Positions 14,298 through 64,000 of a stretch of 64,000 bases of DNA are shown here, piece after piece. The translations under genes were made by a program, and so were the position numbers. The number at the start of each line of letters is the position of its first letter. Within the stretch, counting starts at the first letter, position 1. Below the pieces are notes generated by a model. The model searched no databases. It saw nothing but the letters and a program-made list of their open reading frames with translations, and was not told the DNA's origin. Source of the stretch: Marsupella aquatica (taxonomy: Eukaryota > Plantae > Marchantiophyta); NCBI GenBank assembly GCA_973895155.1, contig OZ316891.1, positions 25,233,899 to 25,297,898 on the forward strand. Reading direction: 5' to 3'.

Positions 14298-14495
14298 TGT
14301 TGTAATAGACAACTAAAGGAAACACTCAAAGATACTCCAACAAGATAGATCCATTACTATTGATGAGGGGATATATATATCCCCTTGGTTACATGGTAGG
14401 CAAATGCCCTTATACTGGTCCTATGGTTAGGAGTTCTCATACTATGGTTAAGGGTTCTCGCCCTATGGTTAAGGGGTAAACTAGGGTTTACAACA
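14298..14495 (-). repeat. Copia 3' LTR (198 bp)
   Basis: Direct repeat of 19975-20172; preceded on the minus strand by the PPT AAGGGGGAG (14496-14504). Confidence 0.95.
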
Positions 14496-19727: not shown

Positions 19728-19961
19728 TCATGCCAATAAAGTATTAGTCCTTTGGACTCTCGATATGCTGGTCCCGAATTGATGCTCTATGTGAAAAATT
19801 TCGTGTTTTGTAAAAAAAATTCAACTCTGAGGCAAAAGAATGGAGACCAAGAAAAAAAAACGGTTATGGCAGTTTCTAAAAAAAATGCCACTTTACGAGC
19901 ATTCTCCTCGTGTAAAACTCGATTGCATCTGCTTGAAAAAAAATGATTTTAGAGACTGGCT

Positions 19962-19974
19962 CGTGCTGATAACG
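19962..19974 (-). other. Copia primer-binding site, half-tRNA type (probably tRNA-Ile anticodon arm)
   Basis: CGTTATCAGCACG immediately after the 5' LTR, with no TGG start. Confidence 0.65.
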
Positions 19975-20172
19975 TGTTGTAATAGACAACTAAAGGAAAC
20001 ACTCAAAGATACTCCAACAAGATAGATCCATTACTATTGATGAGGGGATATATATATCCCTTTGGTTACATGGTAGGCAAATGCCCTTATACTGGTCCTA
20101 TGGTTAGGAGTTCTCATACTATGGTTAAGGGTTCTCGCCCTATGGTTAAGGGGTAAACTAGGGTTTACAACA
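19975..20172 (-). repeat. Copia 5' LTR (198 bp)
   Basis: Direct repeat of 14298-14495; TATA-like core inside a GGGATATATATATCCC palindrome. Confidence 0.95.
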
Positions 20173-40504: not shown

Positions 40505-43500
40505 TGTGGTGCATCCCATGCTCCCCAAACCCAAGAAACCCCCCCGCACAAGCCGATTCCCGCAGGTTTCATGCTCGGCGAGGCCGTTTCCGTAGCTTAG
40601 TGGCATGGGATGCTGCTAACCTCCTACTATTACTATTAATATTTTACACACATATACTGGACAGATCATTCATCGGGTCATGAGATACGCAGTTGGCCTA
40701 ATCTAGACCTTCTCTTGTCTTTCCCTCCTGTTGGTTAGGTATATTTGGATTCCGCCGCCAGAATGATCCCCAATTGGTTTGGTTAAGCCGCTAAGACCTC
40801 TCTCAGCTTGACACATCCAACTCTCACTCCCTTGCTTACTTCCCTTCTACTTGTTGATGTGGGCACTCTTCACACAAGTTAATGCGACACACAAATAGCA
40901 AAATGACTCCTTTTGACTGAGTTATAGCATGCACTTGCAATACAAACAGTACATCTCATAGACAAGCTCTGCAAACTAAGCCGTGAGACCAACTCTATTC
41001 AGTTCTTAGGTATGAGGAAACATGAATATACACAAGGGTCATTGTATAACTAACCGAGAGCTTCTCTTACTACTTGATCCCAGCCTTGCTGGTGCAACTA
41101 AAAACTTGCTAAAGAAGAGGCCCTGAACTCCCCGCCGCCCAAGTACTTATCCTGGTCGCGGATCCGCCTGATTCCTTGCAGCATAAGCCTAATCTACCTA
41201 CTGTAATCTACTTGACTGTAATCTACCTATGTACAGCAAGGCAGGAGCACAAGTGTCGCCCTCACCCATGGATCCAAAATCCCACTAATCTAAGTGTCAG
41301 GGCTGTCTCCTGGTCCTGATCCTAAGTCTAGACTTGGAGATCAGCGCCCGCCCTGCCCACTCACGCCTCCTACCTCCACGTCCGCCTTCCCTAAAAGGGA
41401 CGGCGCCCTTACACCGTCACGACACCGGTGGCTGGTCCTCACTGGACGCCCCCAACGCATCCTCCGCAGCCACTGCCGTTGGTCCGTCCTATGACAGATT
41501 ACCTGCCCTTGACCGAGTCAACTCTTCATCGGCCTGATTGGGTCCACCGTCGGCTTTGGCCTCAGCCTCGATCACGGCCTCCGATACGGCTATGGCCTCC
41601 CCGACATGTTCTAGTGGAGGATCCGGTACCTCGGCATCATTACTGGTTCTCCCGGCCTCGGCCTTGCCATCTCCACTTCCTAGGACTGATGGATCCACCG
41701 CCGTGCCGATGCTGGAGATTGTTACGGCTTTATCTTCTCGGTCACAACAGCTTGAGAAGCCGTATAACTCCCAGACCTAGAAGGTTTCCGCTTCTTCTTC
41801 TTCCCTATTTTGACAGCCGGTTCCTTCCCCTTGCCACTTACCTTCGGCACCTGGGTGAGTGTTTCGGCTTGTCCTGCGGCCAATACTACCCCTGGTAACT
41901 GGGTTCCCCCAATTGGAGTTGGACCTGATGAAGCCAAGCATTTAAATACTGTGGCTTGTGTCTTCAGCCGCTCTGTTTGGTTGTTGGCCCTCCGCTGTAG
42001 GTTCTCCATCTTCCTTGTGATTTCCTCCAACTCCTCCTGGGTCTCGTCCAGGTCCTTGCATGCCTCCTCCAACTCCTTATTGGCTTCCTCCAATTCTTTC
42101 TTTAAGGTAGCCCTCTCCTCCTGGGTTGCTCTTAGCTCCTTGTCGAGCTCTGCTACAACCACAGACTCCATTTTATTCATCTTGGCATAAGTCTGGTTGA
42201 ACTGGTCGTCCTTTTCGCGTAGGTCAGCCTTGAAGCTGGCCGTTAGGGACGCAAGCTCCTGTTGCAGCGCAAAATCCCTTGATAGGATTTCCCTAACTCT
42301 GCTTCCTTCTGCTCAAGGGCTCCGCGGATATCTTTGAGCTCTCCTTTCAACGCCCTCTCCCTTCTTTGGTTCTCCGCCATTGCCCGATTGTTGGTTGCTA
42401 AGTGGGCCTCCTCTGCATCCCTTAGCTCCCGCTTCCATTTCTCTCTTTCTTTGACTGCGCCGGCCAACTCTCCTTGGGTCCAAATCAGTTTATCCTTGAT
42501 AATCTGATTGTCAGACTGAGCGGTATCCAACTGCCCCTGCATGATGTTTAGCTCATGCCGCTTAATCCGTAGCTCATCTTGGGCTTTCTTGGCCACCTGC
42601 AGGATTTCCACCTTGGCTTCCTTCTCCCTAAGCCGTCGGATGACCTTGTCCTTCTTGCTTCTCTCCAAAACCACCGCTTCTTCTAATTCGTGCTTTTCCA
42701 ACATCTCCCTCTGGAAAAAGGGTCCCTGCTCCAACTCCTCCCCAAAGATACTAAGCGCCAGGTCCTCACACATCTCCCCGTACTCCATGGCTCTATCCTT
42801 AGCATAGGTGGAGTAACTAGAAGTCATCGGCATCAACCACCGCGGCCTCTGCTCCCAAGCCGCCTTGCGGATTTCTTCTATGGTGGCAAGAGGGTTGCTT
42901 CTTTTTTCGGCAAGCCGCCTGATGTCCTCCAGCCAATCTCCTCCTGGTAAATCCTTTTCCCTAGCCAGGGCTGCTTTCTCTTCCTCCCTAAGTCGCTCCT
43001 GAAATTCTTGTGCCGTCTGCTTTATGCCGTCAAAGCTCGGGGGAGCAATCTTTGGTGGGGGAGACTCGGGGCTATTTTTTTGGGTGGGGTCCCCTCGAAC
43101 TACTCTTGGAAGCGTGGGGATAAATTGGCCACAGGTCCTTACTCCTAGAACATGATGATCCGACCCATAGCCGGAGTTATCATTGTTGTAGTCCTCCACC
43201 GCCTCCTCCACTACTTGGACTCCCGGCTTCTCCCTTTGGTCCCCTGGTCCAATCGTAAAAATGGCCTCTGGTTCCTCTGGTTTCCAGGCTGTCGTCTCCC
43301 TCTGCTCTCCGCGGGAAGGAGCCTTAGGTTGCTCTGCCTCTGATTCGGGGCTTGAGGCTCCCACATACATTCGCACTCCCGGCTTGTGTTCTGGCCTCCT
43401 GGTCTCCTTGGTTCCGGTAAAGGGGTCTTCCCTTCTGAGTCGGCTTAGGCCGACCTCTGGGGCAACGTCCTGTATTGGTGCCGTTGCCGGAACCATTGCC

Positions 43501-45228
43501 GTTGCCGGAACCATTCTCTTTTCCTTCTCCAGCAATTTGAGCAGATTTTGCATGCCTGGTTGCTGCATCGGCAAGTCTTCTTTCTTTGTCCGAAACACGT
43601 GCTCGATCGTTGGACTGTCGGGTTGGTTGGGCTTCTCTAGTGCCGGCCCCTGCTCTTCCTCTTCCTCCGGTGCCCTTGCCGATAGGGGAAGTACTGGGGC
43701 AAAGATTTGACTTCTGGCATACCGGCACAACAGCAGCATGTGATAGCCAAGCAGGGACACGCTTCCCACGCCGATCACCTGCTGTTCCTCCTTCAAGATC
43801 TTCTTTAGTTGGTTGAGGAGGTACCTGTTGTAATCCCGGCTTGGGTCTGGCCTTTTTGCCAGGTAGACCTGAGCCTTGCCGATTTCTGCCCTCGGCAAGT
43901 TACAGTGCATGGTCACCCGCAAGAAATCGATCATTGCTCCAATGTGCGGGTTGGTGCAGGTGTTCCAAAAGAAGCCATTCTTTGTTGATGGTCCTGGGAA
44001 CGACCAAAACTCCTTGTCAGGTAAGGTCTTCTTGGTATCAACCTTGGTCTTATTACCCATCGGCAATCCAAACACCTCAGCAATCACCCGGGGAGTGAGA
44101 TAGAAATCCTTCCCATACACCCTCGTGGAATTGGTCTCGGGTTCCCATGATCCCACGAATTCTAATAAGTCTGAGTCTGGCACCTCCGGCTTCAGCCATG
44201 GTAATCTTACGAAGGCTTCCAAGCCGGACCCGGCCATGAAGCCTTGGTACTTCTTGGTCTGCATGGCCGTAAAGCATGCATCCTCCTCCCGTGCAAAGTG
44301 TAATTGCACCTCCTCCGGTAGGGTCGCCGTCCAGCCTTTCCAGGTGTCATCGTTTGTTGGAATGGCTTTGATGGGATCAACCTCTTCCTCTTCGGCGTCT
44401 TCCCTTGTCCTGCTCTGCTGCTCTACTGGCTTCCTAGGTACCGCCGACCTCGTTCTTTTTGCCAGGGTGGCCTCTTCGTTGTTGTTTCCTTTCCTCTTCA
44501 TCTCGGCTGCCGTGGATGTTTCTCCTAGCAAGGTTGCCTTTGTCCACCCCTCCGTGTTACCCTTCAACTCCCAGTGTAGGTCATTGCAGCGATTGATGGC
44601 TTCCCGGATGCCGACGATTCTGTTTTCGCAAAACAGAAGGTTGTCGAGCTGATTGGCAGTAGGAGTCCACAAGAACTCGGCCTTGATAAGTTCTCCTCCT
44701 AAGAAAGCCGTCTTCTGCAATTCCCAGAGCCGAGCGAGCTCCTGCCGTTCTCAAGTTGCTCTCTTTGATTCTTCGTCCTTGTAAGTCCTGACGTACTCAC
44801 CTGCCCGTTCGAACAGGCATCCCCAAAAATGTGCCGCTTGATTGACGTTGCTCATACCCTCCTTGAGTTGATCGCTGGTATCTGTTCCCACCCCGAGTGC
44901 TTGCCTAAGCAGCTGACAGCATTTGTCCTCCCGTAGTCATCTGCCCAGTTTGTTCTTGCAAATGAGCCACTATTCCTTGTGAGCGGTCCTTACCCCTCTC
45001 CTCCTCTGGTCTTCCCCTGTTGGTCACCCCTAGCCGCCGACGCTTAGCGCGCCCTAACCCTAATCGTGTTCTCTCCCCGACGTCCTTACTTCCGGCCTCG
45101 GCCCGGGTTCCATAGTCACCCTTAATTGTTTATATTTTCCTTATTTTGTTCCTATACTAAGGTGTTTCCAGGGTACACTCCTGCTTTACCATGTAAACCG
45201 GGCTAGTGATTCCTGGCTGGGCATCACA
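40505..45228 (-). mobile_element. Solo LTR, family 1 (older subfamily), 4724 bp
   Basis: TGTGGTGC...GCATCACA with 5-bp TSD GCGGA (40500-40504 and 45229-45233); no PBS or PPT. Confidence 0.95.
41417..45113 (-). pseudogene. LTR-encoded accessory ORF in the solo LTR, with several stops and frameshifts
   Basis: ORF pieces 42243-44720, 41722-42180 and 41489-41698 are collinear with 31423-34806. Confidence 0.88.
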
Positions 45229-46464: not shown

Positions 46465-47797
46465 GATACTAAAGTGGATGCTACACCTGAAATTTCTGAA
46501 GCAAACATGGGAGCTCGATCGGACCCTATTATTCCTGTCAACAAAGAGAAGGTAATAGTTCTGGTCGACGCCACAAGTACTAGGAAGAAACAAAAGAGAG
46601 CTATCGAAGGTGGACCTTCTTCAAGGGAGAGTGTTGCAGCATCTGGTGTCCAACGTGAAGTTGGAAACTTCAAAACTACAGTGTCTCGTCATGCCATGGT
46701 TGAGACAAGCCTACCCAAATTTTTTGACTCGACTTTCAACAAGGAGGAAAAACCTGAATGGGTTAGTCATTGGAGAAGTGGGGGAAGGATCTCGTTAAGT
46801 CGGGATATAAAGAGAAGGGTGTTGTGCGGGGCAGAAAAGAAAGATCATTTGGAGTGGATGCGGGTTTCATTTACCTACCGACCAGGTTCAAACCAACAAT
46901 CATAGATAAGAAGGTTCCTAAATGGAACATTCCAGATCACTCCATGGCTAAATCTTTTTTCAAATCCATGGATCCATTTCTATCAGATGATGGGTTCCTT
47001 GCAATTCTACACAATGGGGAGTACGATCCCAAGTCTCAAGTCATTGCTGCCTGTCAGGAGTTGAGAAAATTTCAGTGCATATGCACGCATAATGTTGTAA
47101 TGTTTGTCCCAATGTACGCGGCAAAGACAGACCGTCAAGTAATTATCTACTCTTAACTATTTTGCATTTTGAGTTAAAACTTGTGTAACCTGGAGTTGCC
47201 AACTGACACTTTGGATTGCTTTTTGCAGATGTTTACCCTCAGGCTGGACATATTTGGTCAAATTAATGGGAAATGTAAAATTCCCAAAGACCCCAAATTC
47301 CATACACTCTCCATCAGTGAGGACCCCTCGATCACTAATTTGATCGGGCTTCCTTCTCTCAAATCCGATCCATTCCCGCAAATGGAGTTTGCTAGAAATG
47401 CTCGCCTGTCTGTCGGGTTTATGCAATCTGTCATCGAGCTTGTCACCCGACCTCGTGATATTTTATGGATTGGACCGCTAGGGCTAGAAGCTCCTTCATT
47501 GCTGGAGACTTCTCCGGGAGGTTTGTATTCGGGATAGAACATAGAAAAGAATTTATTGAATCCGCTTTGAAGGTTTTCATGGATTTGTTGTCTCCCAAAG
47601 AGATTGCGGTTTTACCTCCACCTGTTCCTACTACCGACCAAAAGAAGCGAGATAAGCTTCGGTCGGTACTCAATTTTGATTCTGATGATGAGTCCAGCAA
47701 AGGTGGAGAGGAACAAGGTACAGGGGACTCGGAGGAGGAAAAGGAAGAGCCTCGTGGATCTCCAGATGAAACCGATAGTGATGACTCTTCCAAGTAA
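46465..47797 (+). pseudogene. Degenerate beta-class amino-DNA-methyltransferase-like gene with an intron; 5' end cut by element F
   Basis: VDAGFIYLPT (motif IV position)...PKWN...FLSDDGFLAILH; phase-0 intron 47139-47228; VIELVTRPRDI/MDWTARARSSFIAG..SGRFVFGIE (motifs X, I, II); frameshifts near 46765 and 47462. Confidence 0.65.
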
Positions 47798-48565
47798 TGT
47801 TCATAAACTCGTAAGCTTCTTTCTCCATTCCCGTCAATTTATAACATTTCTGTGTTGTTTTGGAGAAAGGCACCTAACGTGCTGGATTTTGTTTCATCAG
47901 GTCAGAGTGGAATGCGAGGACACATTTCAAACTGCAAAGGAGGGTTGCTAGACACAACATAGAAACACCAGAAAAACCTTTTGTTCTTCCCTCCTATGCA
48001 AAGAAAGCCGCAAGGAAAGCCGAGAGTACAAGGACGCTTTGCTGGGAAAACAAAGGTTTTTGGTTACGAAGGGGTGTTGACAGGAAGTTCATTAAACATG
48101 CTTATGTTGATGACTTCTCCCACAGCCAGTACGTAGATGATGAGGCTGTGTCCACGGACAAATCCGAGAGTACAGATTCTAGTTCCAAATTAGAATCTTC
48201 AGAATCGTGACACGTATTGAGGAATTTAGGGTGAAATGTTTTACCAGCGCCTGGCGCTAGTACCAACTTGTATTCAATTCCTCTGTTGAGGGTCCTTATA
48301 AATTAATGTCTCATTACTTGTGTTTTTTACAAGCGCCTGGCGCTCGCCAAATGGTGATTCATAAAGCAAATATTTCCAGCTTTTATTGGTGTGTCATGGC
48401 CGTTTGGCCTTTGTCGTGTCCTACCAACGGTCATCATAATGAGACAAATAGTAGGCAATACAGAGTATATTATACATTTTGGATACCAACGGCCATTTGA
48501 TTTGTGTCCGTTAGTTTGCCAAAGGAAACCCCCCATGGACTGTTAGTGCTAGTGGATACCACAAA

Positions 48566-48770
48566 CTTTTGGACCTTTTGCGGATGACACTTTTTGCGGA
48601 CGACACTTTTCACGGACAACAGTTTTTGCAGACGACAGTTTTCGGACCGACGACCATTTTTGGACTGACAACCATTTTTGCGGACGACACTTTTTGCGGA
48701 CTTCAATTTTTGCGGACGACAATTTTTGGACCCACGACCATTTGCGGACCTTTTGCGGACAATTTTTGCA
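48566..48770. repeat. Tandem array of ~15-bp units, consensus TTTT(T)GCGGACGACA
   Basis: About 13-14 degenerate copies with no unique spacers. Confidence 0.85.
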
Positions 48771-50150
48771 TTTTGTCAGAGGGGAAGTTGACACTTGATT
48801 GGGCTCTATTCAACATGGCAAGAAACGGTGAGCTCATGGATTGGGAGGCAGCGTTCCTCCCTTCTCGTGTGCGTCCAGAAGAGAGCCATTTCAGTTCTTT
48901 TGAGTCACGGATGGAGACTGAAGAGACTAAAACCTCCACTTTTTGGAACCGTCTCGCTCTACCGTATGATGAGGCTATTTGTCCTAGAGAGAAGAACATC
49001 CCGTGGATCGTCGATTCTCCTCCGCTCCCATTTGCAAGCAGGTTCTCGTCTCATCAGGCTGTTCCTGTTGATGGAGAGTTCAAGAAATGTTTGGGAAAGT
49101 TGACTTTAAGGACAATAATATTCTGAATGAAGGTTTTACGAGGGCAATGCGTCGGGGTCCTTCTGAGAGATACATTTGATTGTGTGGTCTTGGATTCAAG
49201 AAAGATCGGAGGAGAGAAGCGACAAAAGTGGAGGACGATTGCAATTCTGAAAGCTAGATGCAAAGTCTAATTTGTTGTTCCTACGGTTTTTCACGAAGAA
49301 CTACATCGCATTGTTCAGTTTGGTGATCACTTTAAGCTAGTGCCGAGCGCTGCTTAAGCTCTTTCGATGTTTTGGGATGGAGTCGACCTTGGCTTAGTTG
49401 TTAGGGTTTTTCCCGGTTGTTGTTTTTTTTGGCCAAAAATGTTTTTTGCCAACGCCCGGCGCTGGTAATGCTAGCACCCAAAGCTAGCCAAAAAATGTTT
49501 TTATTTAATTTTTTTTGGAAAATATGACTTTTTTGAAAATAGTTTTTGATTGTCATTTTTCCTGGTAACAGTAACTTTTTGCTGGTAACAGGAAAATTTT
49601 TGCTGGTACCAGGAAACCTGTTTCCTGTTTTCTGTCACGGGTAGGGGAATTTACAAACGACAACAAACAGATAACAGTAACAGCAAACAGGAACTGTTAT
49701 CAGCTAAAAGAAACTGATACCAATGAACAGTGTTTGGCTAGCAGTGAACAGTGATCATGAAAAAAGGGGACAAAAGATGTGTTTCCAACTACTGGTATAG
49801 AAATTAAGACGACCAAATTTGCGTGAAAGGAAATTGGACTAAACGGAATCATGTATTTTGCAACAAATAAAACCGACTCACAATTGAGATAAACAAAATC
49901 CAAGACCAATATATGTCAAAATGCGCAGGGGGAAAAGAAAACTGTCATATATAATCGCAAAGTACAAAATGCATTTGGCGCAGGTCCTAAAAATGCAGTT
50001 ATAAGTGAAAACTATAATCCTAGTAATACTTCTGTATATTGGATTACTAGGATTACTAGACTTCTGTATAGCCGATAAAAATTCCAAATTTTTTTAAAAA
50101 AAATTTCAAAAAAAATTACCACTCATTTTTGTTAACAGTTTCTGTTTCCT

Positions 50151-53100
50151 TGTGGTGCGTCCCATGGCTCCCTAAACCCAAGAAACCCCCCAGCTCAAGC
50201 CGATTCCCGCAGGTTTCGTGCTTGGCGAGGCTGTTTCCGCGGCTTAGCGGCATGGGACGCTGCTAACCTTCTACTACTACTATTAACATTTTACACACAT
50301 ATACTGGACAGATCCTTCATCGGGTCATGAGATACGTAGCCGGCCTAATATAGGCCTTCCCCTGTCTTCCCCTCCGTCTTGTTAGGTATGTTTGGATTCC
50401 GCCGCCAGAATGATCCCCAATAGGCTTGGTTAAGCCGCTAAGACCTCTCTCAGCTCGACACATCCAACTCTCACTCCCCTGCTTACTTTCCTTCCTTCTG
50501 TTGATGTGGGCACTCTTCACACAAGTTAATGCGACACACAAATAGCAAAATGACTCATTCTGACTGAGTCATACCATGCACTTGCCATACAAACAGTACA
50601 TCTCATACACAAGTTCTGCGAACTAAGCCGTGAGGCCAACTCTATTCAGCTCTTAGGCATGAGGAAACATGAATATACACAAGGGTCACTGTATGACTAA
50701 CCGAGAGCTTCTCGTACTACTTGATCCCAGCCCGGCTGGTGCAACTAAAAACTTGCTAAAGAAGAGGCCCTGAGCTCCCCGCAGCCCAGGTATTTATCCC
50801 GGTAGTGGATCCGTCATTCTTTGCAGCATAAGCCTAATCTACTTAACAGTAATCTACTTGCCCGAATCTACCTATGTACAGCAAGGCAGGAGCACAAGTG
50901 TTGCTCCTACCAGTGGGACCGCAATCCCACTAAGCTAAGTGTCAGGGCCGCTCCTGGTTCTGATCCTAATCCTAAACGTGGAGATCCGCGCCCGCCCTGC
51001 CCACTCACGCCTCCTCCCTCCACGTCCGCCCTCCCTAAAAGGAACGGCGCCCTTGCACCGTCACGACACCGGTGGTGGATCCTCAATGGACGCCCCCAAC
51101 ACTTCCTCCTCAGCCACTGCCGTTGGCCCGCCTACTGACAGATTACCTGCCCTTGACCGAGTCAACTCTCCATCGGCCTGACTGGGTCCACCTTCGGCTT
51201 CAGCCTCGACACCGGCCTCGGCAATACCCACGGCTTCGGCCTCAGCCACTCCCACGGCTTCGGCCTCCCCTTCCCCTAGGGTAGTTGGATCCTTAGCCGT
51301 GACCCTGTCTGGGGTCGGTGCTGGGTCTACCTCCTTGATCACCACGGCCTGTGAAGTCGTATTACTCCTTGACCCTGAAGGTTTCCGCTTCTTCTTCGTT
51401 GGTGGCTCGGCAGCTGGTCCCTTCCCCTTCCCACTTACTTCCGGCACTGGTGCAGTTGACGCGGCTTGTCCTTCGGCAATTACCACCCCTGGTAACTGGT
51501 TTGTCCCAACGGGAGATGGACCTGCTGCAGCTAAGCATTTAAATACTGCGGCTTGTTTCTTTAGCCGCTCTGTTTGGTTGTCGGCCCGCCGCTGTAGGTT
51601 CTCCATCTTCCTCGTGATTTCCTCCAACTCCTCTTGGGTTTCATCCAGGTCCTTACGTGCCCCCTCCAGCTCGTTTTTGGCCTCCTCCTGCTCCCTGTGG
51701 GCTTCCTCCAATTCCTTCTTCAAGGTAGCCCTCTCCTCCTGGGTTGCTCTTAGCTCCTTGTCGAGCTCTGCAATGATGACAGACTCCATCTGGTTCATCT
51801 TGGCGTAAGTCTGTTCGAGCATCTCGTCCTTCTCCCTTAGGTCGGCCTTGAAGCTGGCCGTCAGGGACGCAAGCTCCTGCTGCAGCGCCATAATCCCTTG
51901 ATAGGATTTCCCTAACTCGACCTCCTTCTGCTCAAGGGCTCCGCGGATTTTCTCGAGCTCCCCTTTCAACGCCCATTCCTTTCTTTGGGTCTCCGCCATG
52001 GCCCGGCTGTTGGCTGTTATGTGGGCCTCCTCTGTATTCTTCAGCTCTTGCTTCCACTTCTCCCTCTCTTTGATCGTGTCGGCCAATTCTTCCTGCGTCT
52101 GAGTTAGTTTATCCTTGATATTCTGATTATCAGCCTGCGCGGTGTCCAACTGCCCCTGCATGATGTTCAGCTCATGTCGTTTAATCCGCAGTTCATCTTG
52201 GGCTTTCTTGGCCGCCCTTAGATCTTCAATCTCGGCTTCCATCCTCCTAAGCCGCAGAATGACCTCGTCCTTCTTGCTTCTCTCTAAAGCCACCGCTTCT
52301 TCTAATTGGTGCTTCTCCAACTGCTCCCTATGGAAAAAGGGTCCTACCTCCAACTCCTCTCCAAAGATGCCGAGCGGGCAAGTTCCCCACACATCTCACC
52401 ATACTCCATGGCTCTATTCTTAGCGTAGGTGGAGTAAGTAGAAGTGATCGGCATCGCCCATCGTGGCCTCTGCTCCCAAGCCGTCCTGCGGATCTCTTCA
52501 ATCGTGGCTAGAGGTTTGCTTCCTTTTTCGGCTAGCCGCCTGATGTCCTCCGGCCAATCTCCTCCTGGTAAATCCTTTTCCTTAGCCAGGGCGGCCTCTT
52601 CCTCCTGCTTGATTCGCTCCTGAAATTCCTGCACCGTCTGTTTTATGCCGTCGAAGCTCGGGGGAGCAACATCTGGTGGGGGAGACTCAGGGCTACTCTG
52701 CTGGTTGGGATCCCCTCGCACTACCCTTGGAAGTGTGGGGACAAACCGGCCACAGGTCCTTACTCCTGGAACGTGATGGTCCGACCCATAGCCGGAATTA
52801 TCATGGCTGCAGTCCTCCACTGCCTCCTCTACCTCTTGGACGTCCGGCTTCTCCCTCTCCTCTTCGTCGGTAGGAGCTTCAGGCAATTCTGCCTCAGATT
52901 CGGAGCTTGAGGTTCCCACATACATTCGAACACCTGGCTTGGATTCCGGCCTGATTCTCTCCTTGTTTCCAGCAAAGGGGTTTTCTCTTGTGAGCCGGTG
53001 TAGGCCTACCTCTGTAGTAGTGTCCTGCATTGTTGCCGTTGCCGTTGTTGTTGCCGATGCCGATTTCTTTTCTTTCTCCAGTAGTTTCAGCAGACTCTGC

Positions 53101-54777
53101 ATGCCTGGTTGCTGCATCGGCAAGTCCTCCTTCCTGGGCCTAAACACCTGCTCGATCGTAGGACTAACAGGTGGTTGAGGCTTCTCAGCCAACGGCCTCG
53201 GCGTTGGAGCTTCCTCGGGTGCCCTTACCTGCAGGGGAAGTACCGGGGCAAAAGTCTGACCTCTGGCATACCGGCACAACAGCGGCATGTGATAGCCAAG
53301 CCGCGACACGCTCCCCATGCCGATTACCTGCTGCTCCTCCTTTAAGATCTTCTTCAATTGGTTGAGGAGGTACCCGTTGTAGTCCCGGCTTGGGTCTGGC
53401 CTTTCTGCTAGATAGACCTGTGCCTTGCCGATCTCTGCCCTCGGCAAGTTACAATGCATGGTCACCCGCAAGAAGTCGATCATCTCTCCTATGTGCGGGT
53501 TGGTGCAGGTGTTCCGGAAGAAGCCATTCTTCGTTGATGGCCCGGGGAACGACCGGAACTCCTTGTCAGGCAAGGTCTTCCTGGTATCAACTTTGGTCTT
53601 ATTGCCTATCGGCAGGCCAAACACTTCGGCAATTACCTTGGGAGTAAGATAGAAATCCTTCCCATATATCCTCGTGCAATTGGTCTCGGGTTCCCATGAC
53701 CCCACGAATTCTAATAGGTCTGGCTCCGGTACCTCCGGCTTCAGCCATGGTAATCTTACAAAGGCCTCCAAGCCGGATCCGGCCATGAAGCCTTGGTACT
53801 TCTTGGTCTGCATGGCCGTAAAGCATGCATCCTCCTCCCGTGCAAAATGTAGTTGCACCTCCACCGGTAGGGTTGCCGCCCAGCCCTTCCAGGTGTCATC
53901 CTTGGTTGGAATGGCCTTGATGGGATCGACCTCCTCCTCTTTGGCTTCTCCCTGCCTCCTGCTCTGCTGCTCGGCTGGCTTCTTTGGTGCCGCCGACCTT
54001 GTTCTTTTTGCCGGGGTGGCTTCATCGTTGACGGCTCCCTTCCTCTTCATCTCTGCTGCCGTGGAGGTTTCTCCTAGCACCGTTGCCTGGGTCCACCTTT
54101 CCGTGCTACCCTTTAATTCCCAGTGTATGTCGTTGCAGTTCTTGATGGCCTCTCGGATGCCGACGACGCTGTCTTTGCAAAACAGAAGATCGTCGAGTTG
54201 ATTGGAAGTAGGCGTCCACAGGAACTCGTCCTTGATGAGTTCGCCTCCTAAGAAAGCCGTCTTCTGCAGCTCCCACAATCGAGCGAGCTCCTGCCGTTCT
54301 CGAGCTGCCCTTTCTGACTCCTCGTCCTCGTAAGTCTTGATGTACTCAGTTGCCCGTTCGAACAGGCATCCCCAGAAATGTGCCACTTGATTGACGTTGC
54401 TCATACCCTCCTTAGATTGATCGTCGGTATCTACTCTCTCCCCGAGTGCTTGCCTAAGCAGCTGACAGTAGTTGGCCTCCCGTAGTCGTCTGCCTAGTTC
54501 GTGCTCGCAAATGAGCCACCATCTCCTGCAAGCGCTCCTTACCCCTCTCCTCTGCCGGTCCTTCTTCCCGTTGATCCTTCCTAGCCGCCGACGCTTAACG
54601 CGCCCTAACCCTAATTGGGTTTTCACCCTCAGCCTTACCTCCGGCCTCTGCCCGGGTTCCATGGTTGCCCCTAATTGTTTATATTTTCCTTGTTTTGTCA
54701 CTATACTAAGGTGTTCCTAGGGTGCCTTCCTGCTTTACCCACTTAACCGGCCGAGTGATTCCTGTCTAGGCATCACA
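50151..54777 (-). mobile_element. Solo LTR, family 1 (young), 4627 bp
   Basis: TGTGGTGC...GCATCACA with 5-bp TSD TTCCT (50146-50150 and 54778-54782). Confidence 0.96.
51061..54662 (-). pseudogene. LTR-encoded accessory ORF (~1200 aa from MEPGQR) with a single frameshift
   Basis: ORFs 52344-54701 and 51061-52392 joined by a 2-bp insertion near 52377; the N-terminal extension is open in this copy. Confidence 0.9.
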
Positions 54778-57564
54778 TTCCTGTTACCAGAATCTGTTTG
54801 CTGTTACTGTTTGCTATTTGCTGTCATTTGTAAATACCTTGATAGTAGTAGGGGAGATGCCGCGGGAACTTCTGATGGTGGGAAGAGGAGCCAGGAAACT
54901 AGTAGTAGTGGAGGGCCAGGGCAATCGTCGTGGACGTGCATCAGAAGCACCGTCCGTTAATCCAAGCGAAAGTACAAGATCAAAGGGATCTAGGCCATCT
55001 GGTTCTGGACTTAGCACAAAGAGGAAGAGAACTGGCTAGGGTGAAACGGTGGCTCCATAAGTAATTAAATCTTCGACTAATACATCAATTCCTTCAGTTC
55101 CCATCACGGTTCCTGCGATGCCATTGGTAAGTATTACGTCATTTAGTTTTGTTGAACAAATCCGGATTCCGAGAAAAATCTCGCTGTTTCTTTCCTTAAT
55201 TGAATTTGCAACATTTTTTGTAGACAAATGCGGATTCTGATAAAAATCTCGTTCTTTCACTCCTTAATTGAATTTGCAACGCTCTTGTAGGCTGATCAGG
55301 AGGAGACGGCTCTTTTGATGTATGAGACTAACGCCATCAAAGCAGAGCTCAGTCTGTTGATGCAACAAAGGGTGCAAAGGACAACTGTCCTTCTGCATGT
55401 CAACAATCTGATTTTGATGAGGAGGGGGATTTTTCAACTTTGATTAGCATGTGGAGAATATCAAGATAATTCTCATGAAAAACCCCACGAACTTCAGTGC
55501 CCCGTTCGTGCTGTGTGTGGATCCGAAGGATTGTCCCACACCCGAAGATTGGGACATCCTGAAGTCAAGGGTATGGAAGTATAGAATTATTGGAGGGAAT
55601 CATGGTGCTCGGGCAAAGTCCGAGTTGTATAAAATGTACGGCAAGCAAATTTATGGTGAGCTGGAAGCTTGGATTTATGTTGGGCTTGCAAGATCCGAGA
55701 TCCAAAATTTGGGCTTCCAGCATAATTATGACCAGGAGTATTGGAAGAACGTGACTCACATTGACCAAGTTCGTGCTTGTCACAATATTTATCTTGAAAT
55801 GGGTGTGGGCTCAAATAAAGATGTTTGCCAAGCATGTTGTCAGGAATGCATGATGGATTACACGCTAGGCGTTCATGACTCCATGGCCAAACATGACCCA
55901 GCTTTCCAAATTGCTTTCCAAACAGGTGAAATTTGGGATCTTAAGGAGAAAATTTTCTAGATGTGGGAGAAGGGTATTGTCTTAAGTAGGACAACCCAAA
56001 AACATTGTGGCAACAACAAACGCAAAGGGAAAGGTAAAACCTTTGACGGTAAGGGAGATTAAAATGAATAAACTTGTTGGGGACCTCAACTTAAATTCAT
56101 TTCAAGGTCTACAAGGACTGTCAAATAAGGAGCATGTCAAGCGTCTCTTGAGTAGGGTTATCGGGAAGGTGATCACTTTGGATCAAATGCACAAGGAAGG
56201 TGAGAAGCTGAAAAAGCTTGCCAAGGTGAAGAAACTATTTTTGTAGATATCTGGTCAGCCAGATTGGGCAACGTGAAGAGAAATGTTTCCCACTAAAATA
56301 GATGTTTTGGTCCTTGGCATATGGGCGGAGAAATTGAGTGACCCGGTAAGCATTCCTCTGACCGCAAGATTTTTATCGGCAAAAGTGGTTCCGGCTATCA
56401 CTTATAATTCTGCGGAGGAGGTTATTGTTCCTCTGACCGCAAGATTTTTATTGGCTTTAGCATTCCATTTGTAGGTTTCTAAGCGATTGTATTTATTGGC
56501 GATAGGATTCCATTTGTAGATATGCATGATGCTTATGGGCTATAGTGTTCCATCGCAAGATTTTTATCGGGTTTTGGATTCATCTCACGTTATTCTAACT
56601 GGAGATGTGTGTGACATTTGTACAGTTGAAGATTAGTTCAAAAAGGAAAAACAAAGTGGTTCTGGCTGTCACTTATAATTCTGCGGGGGAGGTTATTGTT
56701 CCCTTGGCTGACATCCCGTATGTGTTTAAGAATTTTGTGCTTGCTGCAATCGATAAGTACAACCGGCTCCAGTCCTTAGGCCAGGGTGCAGTAGAAGCGT
56801 TGGAACAAACATGGAAAAATGCTGACGGGGATTCTTTCCCCTACTATCTCCATGTTGGGGATGTTTGAATTTTGGATTCTTTTGTTGAGCCAAGGGCTTA
56901 CACCCTTGCGGTCGCGGATATTCCCTATGGTTTTAATGCTCTTGGTTCGGAGTTTGATGAAGTGTCCTTCACAGAAAAGGACATTTTAGATATGGTGACA
57001 AGTTTTTCAAAGATGACGACCGCTAAGCAGTGGAGGTTTGTTGCGATCCATTCACTACAACAAACTAATATGGTGATGTCTGCACTTGAGAGTGTATGCA
57101 ACTGTGGGGTCGAGGCTGGAATCTGGGAGAAGACTAACATTCATGAGCGTCCTGCTAGCGCTCGATTAGCATGGGGTTTTGAGAACTGGTCGATGGGTTT
57201 CTATAGTGTGACGTCGCCGGTATGGCGAGTAATGAGTAATTCGGTCTAAACCATGCCTAGCACGTGCGTTAGGGGTATCTTAGGCCGCTATGATTAGCAT
57301 AACGACAGTATTTAGGTAGCCATTATGAGTATGAAATCATTAGTCAATAAGGGGAATTCATGTTCGGGCTGGCGGCGCGTCGCCATTTGCACGCCCGGGT
57401 TACGAGCGTGGAGGGGCCCTCCCTCGGGTCCGTATAACAAACTTTGGGAGGCGTCCACTGACACGTGGTGACTCAGACCGGCGGAGTGGCCAGTGCACTA
57501 CAAGCGTGAACGGTTCAGCCTATAGGCAACGAGGAGATGTCGAGGGATCGACAAGCCCTCAAGG

Positions 57565-57571
57565 TATAAAA
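57565..57571 (+). promoter_or_regulatory. Candidate TATA box upstream of the family-3 LTR ORF
   Basis: TATAAAA in a GC-rich context about 105 bp before ATG 57673. Confidence 0.5.
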
Positions 57572-57672
57572 AGGGAGCCGACCCTTTGTAGTGCACTAGT
57601 CCATCAGTCCGCGCGCCAGCTTTGACCCCAACTCTCTCGGTCGCTCTTAGTTGCCACTACTATCTCCTCTGA

Positions 57673-60306
57673 ATGTCGCACACGATCCTCTCCAGTTCGG
57701 CCATTCGATTCTGGACGCAGTTTCTATCTACCGGAAGGCACTTGGCCGACTCGTTGAAACACGCCAACCCACACCGATACAAAATCAAACGCGAGTACGA
57801 GAGAGCCATCCGCCTAGCAGGATGACACCGCTACATCCTTAACTTTGACTACCCGTCTCAGAGCGAGCTTTACCGACCAGCAGAGGGATCTGGGTACTTC
57901 TTCAACGGAGACAAATATATCGGTTTCTGGGAAGCATTGCTTCGGCTTCCGGACGAGGTCTTCAATATCCCGGGTACAATCGACTTGCAATGACATCACT
58001 TTGACCACATCCCTGCTCAGGTTCGGGCTATCATTAACAACGAGTTCAACACTACCCGTTTGACAGGGTCATCTGCACTTGCTTTGGAGAACTTCTACCC
58101 GCACCTACAGAGCTTCATGGGAACTAGAACCGCAACCACCGGCGCCGACCCAGTCGACCCCACCCGTACCAACACAGGCTCAGGCTCAGCTTCAGTCTCA
58201 GTCTCAGCCTAGCCAACCCCCACCGCCGATCGCCCTGCCAGCAGTACAAGTACGCTCCGTCATCAACGTTGTGGACCTTAGCGACGACGACGAAGCTACC
58301 CCACCCTTGCTCAGGCGGCCCAGAGGAGCAAACACTCGGGGGGCCGACACTACATTATCCCCTACTCGGACCCAAGGAGCGGCTCCAGCAGACAACACGG
58401 TGACCGTGGCCGCCCCGAGCCTATTACTAACGGCGGTAGCACTACCGGTGCCCGATAGAGAGGATGGGGAGGTGTCACCCTCCCCAAGCCAGTCACGGGG
58501 GAAGAAGAGGAAGGAACCCACCACTGCATCCGGGTTACCATTGGCCACGGTAGCCGTGGCCAAGGTGACAATGCACCGCATGGGGGAAAATGTGCATAAA
58601 AACATCCTCCATCCCAAGCATGCGGTGTACCTGAAGACTCAGGGATTCGAGCACCTCGCCTCTCTCCCCTGGAACACTTGCAGGTACTACGGGGAGAACA
58701 TGACAGAATTTGTCAAGAATTATGACGACGCACATCAACAGACTCGGCTGTGGGGAAGGAATATGTCCCTCACGGAAGAACGGCTCAAGATGATCTTTGG
58801 ATTACCCGAAGGTGACCATCGAGTCGAATCACGGGCTCTCGGGGGCAAGGGAGCCAAGTACCAATTCTTGAGTTTTCTTTCGGAGGGAGCAGTGGACAAT
58901 GGGTTTGTGATAAGGACCTGCCTCATCCCCAGGATAGCTGAGCGACTGGAATTCCAAAGGTACGCCCTCCATATGATGGAACCCTGGGGGGAGATCTCCG
59001 CCGCCCAGGTTATCCAGGTCGAAAACTATCGACCTAGGAGGTGGGCGTCGTACTTTGCTAAGAAATTCCATGAAGAGATGGAGCGGCAAAGGAAGACGCT
59101 ATACATTGGCGGAAAGGCGTATTTCGCTAGCCACATCGAGATCATTCTTGAGTGGTACGCTTGGTTTGATCGACGAACCCTTTCCTGTGTCAACGTTACA
59201 AAGCTGGTCCCGGCTAGGTGGGTTTTCCCGGCCTTGGAGAGACGGCCCCAACCCAAGGCCCGAGGTCCAGTGGACACACAAGCTTCACCCACCCCACCTC
59301 CACAAGTAGCTGTAGTCGTAACCGAGGAGGTACCGGATGGGTCGGTTATCGCAACCATCGGTGCGATCCAATAGGCCGGGCTAAGTACAGAAGTCGGTAC
59401 AACGGAGGCCTTACTCGAGCCCGGGCCCCCCAATGACCCGCCGGTGGCTATTTTGGGGAACCGGACATTGCAGTAGGAGGACACTCCAGCCCCTTCCAAC
59501 ACGTCCCAAGGGCTAGATGTCATTGCCCCGGCCCCCGCGCTTGTTGACGTCTGCCCGTGCCCAACTCCGGACAGACACAACCTGGACCACCCGGAACTCT
59601 TCGTATCGGGTACATTTCTGAATGGGCTTCTGGGAGATTTTTCTCATCAAATTGCCCGGGATACTGGGGAGTTCATGGCCCGAAAGGTCGCCTGTTTCTT
59701 CAATCAGGAGTTGGTTGCCGTAGTAAAGGCAGGTCGGGCCCAATCAGAGGCCCTTCAGAGGATAGAGCGGTACCGGGAGGAGTCCGTATACTTAAAGAAC
59801 AAGGTTGCGGCTCAAGAGGCTGAGCTTCTGCAACTACGACCCAAAGTTGTAGCCGCCGACGAGTCGTTAGCAAATACGCACGCCCTTACCGCCCTAGCCG
59901 AGCAGGCCAAAGCAGGGAACGAGGCCAAGATTTCACGGCTTCGGTCCCAGATTGACAGTTTGAAGAATCAAACTGTTATCTGGCAGAAAGACTTGGAGGA
60001 GGCCGAAGAACGGGCCCAACGGGACACTACGGAGATAGCCACGCTACAAGCCAAAGTAGCGCGGCTTCAGACCGAAGCCGAGAAGCAGGACCAGTTGGTG
60101 GGCAAGCTGACGTGCGACGCCCAGCAGCTCGAGGAGGCATGCTAGGAGGCAGCGGAGGAGACGGACGCAGCAAAGCGAGAGAACAAATCTCTGCTAGACC
60201 AAGTCCAGCTCCTCAAGTCGGACAACGACAGACTTTGCAGGCAGCGGGAGGACCGCTCCCACTCGGGCGGCTCTGGCAAGCGTGCCAGATATTAGCGGTG
60301 GAGTAG
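57673..60306 (+). pseudogene. LTR-encoded accessory ORF of family 3
   Basis: GFEHLASLPW...EFVKNYD...LWGRNMSLTEERLKMIFGLPEG...GGKAYFASHIEIILEWY, then a coiled coil (59675-60306); several stops and frameshifts. Confidence 0.8.
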
Positions 60307-61916
60307 GAATGGAATAGGGTTAGGAATAGCTAAGTCAGGCTATTGGGACAGGCACCTGCCTTAGTTATAGCAGCACTGCCATGCTGTCCAGCCTGCATAG
60401 ATTAGGATCTTCTAATAAGACACAGCCGTTTTTTGGCCTGACAGTCAGCTTAGACCTTAGTCAGCAAATCTTCGGGCGAGAGGACACTCCGTTCCTCGGC
60501 CCTTAGTATTTAGTGCACCACTCGGTAGAGGCAAGGGGGGGTTTTTAGTCTCAGAGTTGGACATCGGTGGTATGTGCGGGGAGTCCCGACCTCTGGGAGT
60601 GAAAGAGTACCAAGGGGAGGGGGGGTAGGACTAAGCTCTTTGGGCAAGTGCGGAGCCGGGCTTTGTTGTAGTGTACACCCTCGGCCTTGAACCTGTTCAT
60701 TCCGAAGCTGTCGGGTCAACCAAGTGTACACTTATGTCCCCTATGTAGTAAAATCCTTTCCCATTATTTCCTTCGTGTAAATCAAGATTGTATGCTTGTG
60801 CGCGTGTATGTGTGTGTGAATCTCGTGTATAGGTGACAACGTCGGGCCGAATGCACTACCCGAATTGTGCACGGGGTGCAGCTTGCGGGTATGTGGTTGC
60901 GAGCACGGGTTGAGGACCTGTATCATTGCATCCGGATCGAAGGTGGACAACACGAAGGCTTAGAAGTCCTTAAGCCGGGGTCGATCCTGTTATCGACTAA
61001 GGTACGTTCCGGCGGCGGAACACAAACCATACCTAGGAGATGTCCGTATCTAACAGTAGGCGCACTTAGCGCTAGTTTACGTGAATTGGGTGCATTACGT
61101 TTGTCCCTCCCTGCCCGAACCCTCATATTTACGAAGGATGTGCCCGTTTAAAGTTGAAGCCCGAGTTAAGGCCAAGGCTGATGACGTGACATATAGCGAG
61201 GAAGGCATTCGGAACATGAACATGTACAATTTCCAACCAGATGAGTCTCGCGTCAATATCCTCAAGGTTCCATGTGTAACCAAGAAGTCCATTGATCCGT
61301 TGGCATGTGTTGTGAACCCGTACCAAAAGCCTGTTGGTTTGGGGGCTTGGTTTGTTTCCCATTTCTCTGAGAAAGAGGATTGGGTTATAGATCTTTGTTG
61401 TGGAACCGGATCGATGTTAGCTGCTACGCTCCTCAATTCTTGTCAGGGTTGTGCTGTTGATAAGAGTTCTGTGCAGATTGATTTGGTGAAATCTTGGATC
61501 ATGACTCTGGAGTCAAATTGGAACTTATTTGAGGAATCCCAGATTGAAGGGCACGGCGTTGAAGGTCATGAGATTTAACCACCAATTGCAGGCCAATTGG
61601 GTGTTCTCGGGACATCGGCTTACAAAATTGAAGGCATGAAGGAGACCGAAGAGGAACAAGAAGAAACTTAGGAAAAGCCTCCCAGAACACCAAATGAGGA
61701 TGATCTCAACAAGATGTTATTAGATTAGTTAGATGTGCTAGTTAGGGTTTCTTGGCATCACAGTCATGCTGTTATCAATGAGGAATGGAGTTGTCAATAA
61801 ATTTATCGGATTCTGTATTCCATCAAGAAGAACCATTGTAACTTTGTTCATGGGATAAATTTATTGGACTTTGCATTCCATCAAGAAGCACTTTGCATTC
61901 CAGTCCCTCCACTTGA

Positions 61917-62097
61917 CTAGCTATTCCACTCCCTTGTTTGTCACGGTGTTCTAGTTGTCGAATGGAGTTGTCGATAATCTTATCGGACTTTGCATTTCAT
62001 GTTCTAGCTATTCCACTCCCTTGTTTGTCACGGTGTTCTAGCTGTCGAATGAAGTTGTCGATAATCTTATCGGACTTTGCATTCCATGCTCTAGCTA
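61917..62097. repeat. 87-bp tandem duplication, with degenerate related units at 61785-61900
   Basis: Units start at 61917 and 62004; each holds CGATAATCTTATCGGACTTTGCAT. Confidence 0.85.
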
Positions 62098-62221
62098 GTT
62101 TGTCATTACAATAATTTCAAAAAAAGATATCATTATAGCTTTGGAGAACAACATAGTCCCAGATGTTCATGACTGCGACCATCCTCATGGGAACGATAAC
62201 CATTATAACTTAACCTTTACA

Positions 62222-63844
62222 CTAGCTTCTACTATCAACGACCATAGTGTCCATCATTGCATTTTGAATGATTCGTCTTGTTTGTACAAGGAGAGTACTA
62301 TTTGCCAATAACGCAAAGTTATACGCATAAACGACAGTTTCTGCTAGGGACAATTCATCCTCCAATACTTTGCTAGACAAAGCTTCTTTCTCCGGATAAT
62401 ATTTGCCTTCAATTGCAAACTCCTCTTTCGAATCCATTGCATACCAAGTGATTTTAATTTGCTCGGGGATGTCGTTAATTTTTGTGAGAATCTTAGTCAC
62501 TTTTGCCATCAAGAATGGTCTTCCTGTTGGATCCTAATGGCCTGCTACACATATCATTGCAAATTTAGTATTCACCTCTAGATCCTTGAAGTCTCCAATT
62601 TCTGTGACTTTTCTTCAACTTCTAGAATACATGACTGTCCTCACACCCGCTATTTTATCAACCAAGATAGGTTCCATTGCTCCTCCCGTAGGATTGGTCG
62701 TAGGTTCCCTCTGTACGTTTACCTTGGGCCAACTCAAATCAAAACTCCATTGTGCAGGTTTCAGGTGGTGCTGAATCACTTCTTTTTGTTTGTCAAAAAA
62801 ATGACCCCACCATAGCCGATCTTTGTCGTCAAAGTAATTGAATCCATCTTCAATTGCTCTCTGATACTTTTGAAGAGTCAAAAAATGATTTTGTGCCGCC
62901 CGCTCGTCTTGTTCCTCAGTATCATTCTCTTGATCATCATTGTCTTCTGTCGCTCCTGTGGCCGACTTCAATGTCATTTGTGGTGCGACCCACATTCCAG
63001 ATGAAGGAATGTACCGAACAAATTCCACGGGCTCCCCCCAATCAGTTGTCGTTGAAAGATGTTTGGCATGGAAGACAGACCGAGCACTTCCATCTTTGAG
63101 TACTCTCGTAATCCAAAATTGTTTCTGAGCACTTATGTTGTGGAGAGTACGCAAAACCTGACCATCCATGTTGTTGTCATTTGCTTGATCCTTGTCAGAC
63201 ACAAAGTTTTTGAAATCGGCAACCTCATCGACAAAAAATATATTTGCCGTAGGATTGTAGGATTCCTCTATGATTGCGGAAAGAGTGTCCAACCAAAAAG
63301 CTTTTTGCTTGTTCAATTTTGAAGAAAACTTGCTAAATATTTGATCAATTTGATCATGGGTGTGCCCCACCAACAGAAAACCAACCTTTATTTTTTGGAA
63401 AACACCTATCTCCACCAACATGTTCAAATATGTCATAAGATATTTATTCTTGTTTTCCTGAGCAGTTATCAAGCTGGAGGTAAAGCATTGGAGGAAGCGG
63501 ACCTTCACATGTATTCAAAATATGCTAAATAACTTGGATGGTCAGGTTGCTATCATTGTGAATATTTGGATAGTTCAAAAAAACATTTGAACTCAATTCT
63601 TTGTTGAAGATCAAACAACCCACTACGTGCGGGACTACGTGTACAGGGATGAAATACTTCTCATCCATATTCTTCGGACACCGAATGAAATGAGGTAACT
63701 CTGTCTTATTTTGATCCATTCCATCAATACAAATACCCAAATATATCTCCGGACTCTTGTAACATTTGCTCCGGTGCTTTGCTAACTTCTCCCTCTCCAT
63801 TGCTTGTGCCTTCCGATGCTCGTTTAGCAATGTTGAGAATTTTC
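62222..63844 (-). pseudogene. Sola-like (DUF7869-type) DDD transposase, decayed; continues upstream through an intron
   Basis: ICIDGMDQNKT; LPPMLYLQLDNCSG/ENKNKY (1-bp frameshift near 63455); FLLVGHTHDQIDQIFS; TAG near 63525; splice acceptor at 63845-63846. Confidence 0.8.
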
Positions 63845-64000
63845 CTACAATAATAAAAATGTTTAGGACTTTGCTGGCCAGACAACGATAAATTTATGGG
63901 GTTCAGTATTCAAACACTTGATTTGATAACCATAATGTTAAACCGTGACAACAATAAATTTATCGGGATAAGTATTCAAACTGTTCAAATGATATATTCA

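Follow-up and report, generated by a model that had tools for sequence, protein, structure and literature searches.

A decayed copy of a probable land-plant DNA transposon with a ParB-like/methyltransferase fusion gene and recurrent palindromic sites in Marsupella aquatica

Two convergent genes within a retroelement nest

A 64-kb stretch of the genome of the liverwort Marsupella aquatica (contig OZ316891.1; hereafter the window) is a nest of long terminal repeat (LTR) retroelements; when these are set aside, three segments remain on its right side (46465-50150, 54778-57206 and 61192-64000). They include two genes lying tail to tail, namely a plus-strand gene that is predicted to fuse a ParB-like region to a DNA amino-methyltransferase domain and a minus-strand gene for a DDD transposase. 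An earlier note on this DNA, made from the sequence alone, had asked whether the pair belongs to a methylase-carrying DNA transposon. The locus is probably a decayed copy of a land-plant DNA transposon, likely a multi-copy one, whose fusion protein would bind the element's own sites and methylate adenine.

The ParB exon of the fusion gene (55291-56345, plus strand) encodes a predicted N-terminal ParB-like domain, a candidate ParB/KorB-like helical DNA-binding region and a helical linker, and contains the motifs GGNH (55592-55603) and HNYD (55721-55732). It is followed by a GT..AG intron (56346-56625), whose donor and acceptor positions recur in four related metagenomic loci (L001-L004, described below) and at which the open reading frames (ORFs) of relatives end. 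The methyltransferase exon is split in two. Its 5′ half (56626-57206) contains motif IV, ADIPYG (56914-56931), and one stop (56866); its 3′ half (61192-61728) contains NPYQKP (61315-61332), motif I, DLCCGTGS (61390-61413), an acidic tail and stops at 61576 and 61669. The 3,985-bp insertion between the halves (57207-61191, plus strand) has TG..CA ends and TATAG flanks at 57202-57206 and 61192-61196 (a 5-bp target duplication). It interrupts the exon in frame, its excision restores one continuous frame, and the empty site (joint 57201>61192) is present in contigs of all four runs examined. The insertion is likely a solo LTR, in keeping with the homology between its ORF and those carried by the other long LTRs of the window. 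Upstream, a low-complexity candidate exon with two stops that ends at a GT donor (54857-55127, plus strand) and a candidate first intron (55128-55290) were placed on sequence grounds only.

The ParB exon contains two frameshifts and three stops. It was compared with ten of 80 candidate relatives (47-79% identity), and all ten intact relatives span 55291-56345 as a single ORF; introns inside this interval were therefore rejected, and the breaks are lesions. In total, besides the insertion, the fusion gene has suffered six stops and two frameshifts over ~730 codons, and the transposase gene three stops and one frameshift over ~540 codons. Both genes are decayed to a comparable degree, and the window copy is dead, since neither protein can be made from it. 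In a comparison with related copies in run X2, C-to-T and G-to-A changes occur at 84 places in the window versus 35 for the reverse, an approximately twofold excess that would be expected of a methylated, dead copy. Among the rows listed, two of the three transposase stops, the transposase frameshift and one frameshift of the ParB exon are missing from the deep contigs.

The gene model of the earlier note survives in outline. The motifs on which it relied (GGNH, DIPY, NPYQKP and DLCCGTGS) all lie where it had placed them, with motif IV ahead of motif I, removal of the solo LTR does leave the methyltransferase frame continuous, and the similar decay that it had reported for the two genes is borne out by the lesion counts. 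Its spliced gene is retained for the well-supported intron at 56346-56625 but not for the breaks inside the ParB exon, and the methyltransferase continues past two more stops to 61728. The convergent layout and the DDD transposase stand; the intervening distance, which it had put at about 0.6 kb, is ~0.49 kb between stop codons (gap 61729-62221).

The last exon of the transposase gene (63844-62222, minus strand) matches Pfam DUF7869 (E 6e-28), which is the sole sequence basis for a label, “Sola-like,” that we presume to be appropriate. Its motifs are IDGMDQ (63728-63711), LQLDN (63479-63465) and GHTHDQID (63367-63344), and the aspartates of the DDD triad, 80 and 41 residues apart, do not vary in any ungapped row among 12 relatives. 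A sequence search returned no solved relative of the transposase. The 5′ part of the gene probably lies beyond the window.

Linkage between the two genes was assessed in the four related loci, which a metagenome scan yielded from 194 pattern matches, all in one assembly and on contigs of at most 5 kb. In L002, a transposase (54% identity over 413 aa) lies tail to tail ~320 bp past the methyltransferase, and the L003 contig ends in the last 31 residues of a transposase ~370 bp past the methyltransferase (E 2e-5); the contigs of L001 and L004 extend at most ~360 and ~300 bp past the stop, respectively, and are too short for linkage. The opposite-strand layout is consequently seen in the window and in two of the four related loci. 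In run X2, the depth is 386-608 on the ParB exon, the empty site, the transposase and an upstream gene that is described below, and 15-26 on the other listed contigs. Such even, high depth suggests tens of near-identical copies of one unit, depth itself being no copy number. It is highly probable that the two genes move as one unit. The possibility that the methyltransferase is a single-copy host gene unlinked to a transposase, by which the earlier note would have been overturned, is contradicted by the linkage in L002 and L003 and by the deep contigs on both genes.

Predicted folds and range of the family

The 3′ half of the methyltransferase exon is 61-72% identical to five intact relatives, all of which pass the Pfam N6_N4_Mtase cut-off. 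A model of the methyltransferase exon from relative P0011 (predicted local distance difference test, pLDDT, 78) matches CcrM (E 3e-15, Z 23.1, root-mean-square deviation (rmsd) 3.2, 228 aligned) as well as M.BceJIV, N4CMT, MboIIA, PvuII and RsrI, and the domain is accordingly predicted to have a beta-class amino-methyltransferase fold. The permuted order of this class is present, with ADIPYG (56914) preceding DLCCGTGS (61390). Aspartate is the first residue of motif IV in every row that has the motif, in place of the serine in the SPPY of N4-methylcytosine (4mC) writers. The canonical DPPY occurs only in relatives P0150, P0153 and P0164, and two annotated phage methyltransferases bear DIPY and DLPY, their activity being known by annotation only. 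According to the accessible text of one account, the prolines of motif IV work through the backbone carbonyl, and an aspartate in this motif tends toward N6-methyladenine (6mA) rather than 4mC, which is a tendency only (PMC4738411). Because phage proteins have the same variant, DIPY may lower strict class membership more than function; because motif IV begins with aspartate, 6mA would be a likelier product than 4mC. In L001-L004, the methyltransferase exon is open, with a nonsynonymous divergence (dN) of 0.14-0.29 and a synonymous divergence (dS) that is saturated or above 3.4 in all six pairs, and D-x-P-Y, PYQKP and DLxxGTG are retained together across this saturated divergence. Judged from these comparisons, the intact relatives appear to be under purifying selection.

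A model of the ParB exon, made from relative P0001 together with 110 sequences (pLDDT 90), has only members of the ParB family (ParB, Noc and KorB) as its top Foldseek matches (best E 1.8e-5). In VIA-align comparisons, the model aligns with PadC, which has the ParB/sulfiredoxin N-terminal fold (Z 9.5, rmsd 3.1, 99 aligned), and with the two-domain structures of pNOB8 ParB (Z 8.7, rmsd 4.8, 212 aligned) and KorB (Z 7.9, rmsd 12.5, 169 aligned), so that a ParB/KorB-like fold is predicted for the N-terminal region. In the Pfam scan, ParB_N matched neither the window piece nor any of the ten relatives, and HTH_ParB matched three of the ten weakly (E 0.04-0.09). The ParB label of the earlier note is thus upheld by structure and not by the Pfam model; the domain search that it had suggested succeeded for N6_N4_Mtase alone, and the structure prediction by which it was prepared to be refuted gave a methyltransferase fold. 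In ParB proteins, the arginine of GxxR is needed for CTP (cytidine triphosphate) binding. The corresponding position among 85 rows is S in 38, G in 21, T in eight and L in five; conserved instead are G-G-x-H, an upstream arginine (52/60) and a downstream asparagine (83/87). A two-copy prediction of the ParB region, run without an alignment, scored 0.01.

A profile search with the family gave 300 clusters at E ≤0.001, the best 150 of which were examined. Seventeen of these 150 ParB-exon matches also have a methyltransferase domain (E <1e-11), many others being short fragments, and seven of 37 long matches pass the Pfam cut-off for this domain. Among 20 clusters that were looked up, the streptophyte sources are Chara braunii (three), Riccia sorocarpa (three), Ginkgo and Adiantum, and the other named sources are a sea cucumber, a hemichordate, a sea anemone, abalones, amphioxus and an amoeba; Chara and Riccia have three paralogues each (among 10 looked up). 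In a quick tree of 44 rows, with long-branch warnings, which shows grouping only and no order of events, the window piece falls within a group of 15 that otherwise consists of environmental rows (support 100); this group is nested in one of 33 (support 96), in which every named streptophyte row but none of the named animal rows is found, a placement that by itself would make a streptophyte host likely. The phage and plasmid matches among those listed are 21-32% identical, all below 60%, and a pattern search of GTDB genomes and viral contigs found no relative and no donor. The argument of the earlier note that introns speak against contamination is strengthened by the conservation of the GT..AG intron in L001-L004, which supports a eukaryotic gene.

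Three members of the family (P0116, P0068 and P0141) differ in their partner domains or hosts. One has a weak Tudor-like match and a nearly constant length of 543-548 aa across four Haliotis species, and possibly represents a domestication; another is fused to a SAM domain, and a third derives from a transcript of the amoeba Clastostelium.

Palindromic sites and neighbouring features

The non-coding DNA of the element contains a recurrent 38-bp palindromic site with the consensus GAAT-N8-CGA-N8-TCG-N8-ATTC. The core CGA-N8-TCG occurs 12, 6, 22 and 5 times in L001-L004, versus expectations of 1.1, 0.6, 1.2 and 0.55, and no other core spacer (4 to 12) exceeds four occurrences in these loci. Although coding DNA makes up 64-81% of L001-L004, 41 of the 45 core sites are non-coding. 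In 40 of 104 half-sites, GAAT lies on the outer side of the core at a distance of exactly 12 bases; no other offset has more than two instances. In the window, a decay-tolerant pattern has eight matches within the 8.9-kb element and one in the other 55 kb, with 0.14 in shuffled sequence.

Four sites of the window lie in the spacer between the 3′ ends of the two genes (61783-62084; cores at 61795, 61853, 61972 and 62059), two in non-coding DNA upstream of the transposase exon (63874-63977; cores at 63886 and 63952), two in the candidate first intron of the fusion gene (55158-55263; cores at 55170 and 55238) and two, both decayed, in its conserved intron (56353-56581; cores at 56365 and 56556). 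Seven of these ten have a decayed core, and in four of the seven, among the rows listed, the majority allele of the related copies is nearer to the palindrome: it approaches the palindrome at 61796 and 61853 and completes it at 63898 and 63953. The inner spacer of the site varies by subfamily. The non-coding DNA of L001, L002 and L004 aligns mutually, and that of the window and of L003 aligns with none; since the non-coding DNA of these three groups no longer aligns, the site is common to three independent groups. A reading of the sites as hairpins found no support in the window or L003, the outer spacers pairing at 1.8 of 8 positions versus 2.4 in controls for the window and at 3.1 versus 3.1 for L003; in L001, L002 and L004 they pair somewhat better than controls. 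The sites of L003 have an asymmetric core and keep the outer arm on one side only, which gives the site a direction.

The element has been separated by a later insertion from what is probably a further part of it. A 4.6-kb solo LTR with a TTCCT target duplication (50151-54777) lies upstream of the ParB gene, and a joint that crosses it (50127>54778) is seen in runs X2 and X3. Because of this joint and a similar contig depth, the segment 46465-50150 (plus strand) probably belongs to the same element. It includes the upstream gene mentioned above (46465-47797), a broken gene weakly like a degenerate methyltransferase, whose 5′ part has been cut away by the retroelement nest and whose depth resembles that of the element. 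This gene has an acidic tail, and the likeness lies in its last exon, which recalls a degenerate form of the methyltransferase motif I region (E of only 0.029 with PHROG); hhalign gave no significant match to methyltransferase profiles. Within it, a 90-bp GT..AG segment (47139-47228) corresponds to a net 90 bases that, in three runs, the deep contigs lack (joint 47134>47227), and is either an intron of some copies only or a small insertion that mimics an intron. Further along, the tract 48230-48770, with short repeated units, small palindromes and a depth below that of its flanks, is probably another nested element. Skipping the solo LTR brings to light an inverted repeat of 78 bp (79%) between 49646-49723 and 50129-50150 plus 54783-54838. 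It bounds ~560 bp in which the depth is raised in some runs, and probably delimits a nested miniature inverted-repeat transposable element, or possibly marks a boundary of the element. In the metagenomic loci, upstream ORFs of L001 (643-1779) and L003 (~330-1235) look alike by eye; they have no PHROG match and no match in the window, and possibly represent a subfamily-specific first exon or a third gene.

The surrounding nest includes five LTR-like units of 4.0-4.7 kb, of Ty3 type and with long internal ORFs (3297-7948, 30511-35179, 40505-45228, 50151-54777 and 57207-61191). The longest of these ORFs has 1,197 codons (31423-35016), and one domain is common to the families; a Pfam scan of ORFs from two of the units gave no significant match. 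A copia-type element at 14297-20172, nested in a Ty3 element, has an unbroken ORF of 1,575 codons and 199-bp direct repeats that are 99.5% alike, as expected of a young insertion.

Proposed self-marking, its rivals and comparison with known systems

A feasible model may be that the fusion protein binds the 38-bp palindromic sites of its own element through the ParB region. A dimer would read the inner CGA-N8-TCG core, as ParB does on parS; the outer GAAT/ATTC arms, one helical turn outward, would be the likeliest methylation target (adenine), and adenine methylation near the sites would mark the element itself. That the ParB part, and not the transposase, reads the sites seems probable to us, and we lean slightly toward intact members being catalytic. 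The mark may in turn keep the element expressed or time transposition against host silencing by 5-methylcytosine (5mC), a suggestion that we consider rather doubtful. It is also tempting to speculate, more tentatively still, that the streptophyte family has been recently active and uses ParB-guided, site-specific 6mA on a four-part operator as an anti-silencing or transposition switch.

Several observations weigh against this interpretation. The linkage rests on two loci of one metagenome assembly, no contig of the runs examined spans both genes, and the element runs off the window, so that its ends lie beyond the window or are hidden and neither terminal inverted repeats (TIRs) nor target site duplications (TSDs) are seen. 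The sites within a locus are partly local duplicates and hence not independent, and the ten sites of the window were chosen with a pattern drawn from the same data. DNA-binding-domain chains alone match the P0001 model weakly (Z 4.0-5.2), and a CTP-driven sliding clamp appears doubtful for the family because most rows have S, G or T in place of the GxxR arginine. The strict motif [DNSH]PP[YFW] is absent from the window and its close relatives, which have DIPY or DVPY, and animal relatives have DMPQ or DMPK at motif IV; the latter are apparently inactive, and the domain may therefore persist without catalysis. Finally, the intact loci show a mild CpG deficit in their coding DNA (observed/expected 0.72-0.79), the window genes are as CpG-poor as the neighbouring retroelements, and the CpG content shows no sign of lasting protection from 5mC.

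These motif IV variants, non-canonical in all close relatives and DMPQ or DMPK in the animal ones, together with the missing ParB arginine, would suit the main rival explanation, in which the methyltransferase domain has lost catalysis and remains as a scaffold, the protein being a VANC-like, site-binding cofactor of anti-silencing or transposition. So would the available account of VANC, which binds family-specific motifs in introns and spacers, the same distribution as that of the sites here (PMC5735166). On the contrary, the joint retention of D-x-P-Y, PYQKP and DLxxGTG across saturated synonymous divergence, the three relatives with canonical DPPY and the phage proteins annotated as methyltransferases that show DIPY or DLPY favour catalysis, and we consider a dead scaffold unlikely, while giving it more weight than any other alternative. 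Cut-and-paste elements often bear repeated transposase sites, and, as the ends of the element are undefined and part of the array is a tandem duplication, the palindromes might instead be transposase-binding sites or small selfish hairpins, with the ParB-methyltransferase a passenger that has another target. However, the sites occupy internal introns and the space between the genes, and in the window and L003 pairing of the outer spacers does not exceed that of controls, which makes this explanation improbable.

Two further explanations concern the origin of the gene. Some distant relatives resemble stable host genes, such as the length-conserved protein of the four Haliotis species, and the fusion gene could by analogy be a host gene merely adjoining a transposon; the recurrence of the layout in L002 and L003, the matching decay, the high and similar depth on both genes and the position of the locus inside a retroelement nest render this very unlikely. 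Two folds that are typical of prokaryotes might raise the suspicion that the gene is a bacterial or phage contaminant or was recently acquired by transfer, and the named Atlas clusters nearest to the Chara relative are phage ParB_N plus N6_N4_Mtase proteins (score 0.86-0.87), a lead only. Such an origin is scarcely credible in view of the conserved GT..AG intron, the LTR insertions, the low identity of the listed phage and plasmid matches, the absence of a relative from the GTDB genomes and viral contigs searched, and the grouping of the window piece among streptophyte proteins. Thus, a self-marking transposon remains the interpretation that we prefer.

The pairing of a transposase with a ParB-methyltransferase is not new. 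As far as its available text goes, the description of Sola1-1_Ec32 from Ectocarpus reports a transposase of Sola type and, on the opposite strand, a gene for a ParB-like/N4C/N6A methyltransferase, and its authors propose that the methyltransferase protein binds and modifies its own element (PMC12477816); self-marking by ParB-methyltransferase accessory genes is to this extent in print as a proposal for algae. What appears to be added here is the non-coding 38-bp site common to three subfamilies, together with the occurrence of the pairing in a streptophyte family whose intact relatives are apparently under purifying selection. The accessible parts of the literature searched, outside which Repbase and the defining Sola paper lie, contain no land-plant element of this kind and no 38-bp site. 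A defined site and a candidate target base make the self-marking proposal testable, and the questions on which it touches are whether DNA 6mA is made enzymatically in land plants and how transposons resist 5mC silencing. If the proposal is true, DNA 6mA in land plants would have in this family a defined source that is restricted to a transposon, and a programmable pair of binder and writer could serve as a tool.

Among known systems, ParB, Noc and KorB share the fold of the N-terminal domain with the family described here and match it more weakly in the DNA-binding domain, and the core of the palindromic site is similar in length to parS, which is 16 bp. By contrast, identity to these proteins and to the phage fusions of ParB-N with N6_N4_Mtase is 10-18%, and the present family is eukaryotic, has introns and bears GGNH(G/S) in place of GxxR.

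The closest counterpart is Sola1-1_Ec32, which resembles the window, L002 and L003 in gene pairing and opposite strands, and whose transposase has a Physcomitrella Sola1 as its best listed match (PMC12477816). It differs in belonging to a brown alga and in its 21.5 kb, 282-bp TIR and 4-bp TSD; the accessible portion of its account, on which this comparison by description is based, mentions neither land-plant members nor binding sites (PMC12477816). In the red-algal Plavaka (EnSpm) elements, the PAG2/PAG3 accessory genes include one for a ParB-like protein beside inverted-repeat arrays that are proposed as its binding sites, and a PF01555 methylase is present on the same element, according to the available text (bioRxiv 10.1101/2025.02.11.637652). 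These elements thus share a transposon-borne ParB-like protein and repeats with the present one; however, their transposase is of EnSpm type, their ParB region is fused to a 2OG oxygenase, and their methylase is fused to SET in a separate gene. VANC of the Arabidopsis VANDAL elements is likewise encoded by the element, and its family-specific motifs in introns and spacers change between subfamilies. It belongs, however, to a Mutator-like element, is an unrelated protein, recognizes short motifs in the same orientation and removes 5mC, a function that, in the accessible report, was tested experimentally (PMC5735166).

N4CMT (PMC8885841) provides a beta-class fold in a eukaryote that is similar to the predicted methyltransferase domain (Z 20.7, rmsd 3.6, 218 aligned), although the family is only 18-19% identical to it. 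The kinship to N4CMT and MpDN4MT1 that the earlier note had envisaged therefore extends to the fold but not to the motif, which is S-PPY there and D-x-P-Y here. Both are described, in the available parts of their sources, as host 4mC writers (PMC8885841; bioRxiv 10.1101/2021.02.12.428880), and MpDN4MT1 has TSPPY and no extra domain (bioRxiv 10.1101/2021.02.12.428880), whereas the present family combines D-x-P-Y with a ParB domain.

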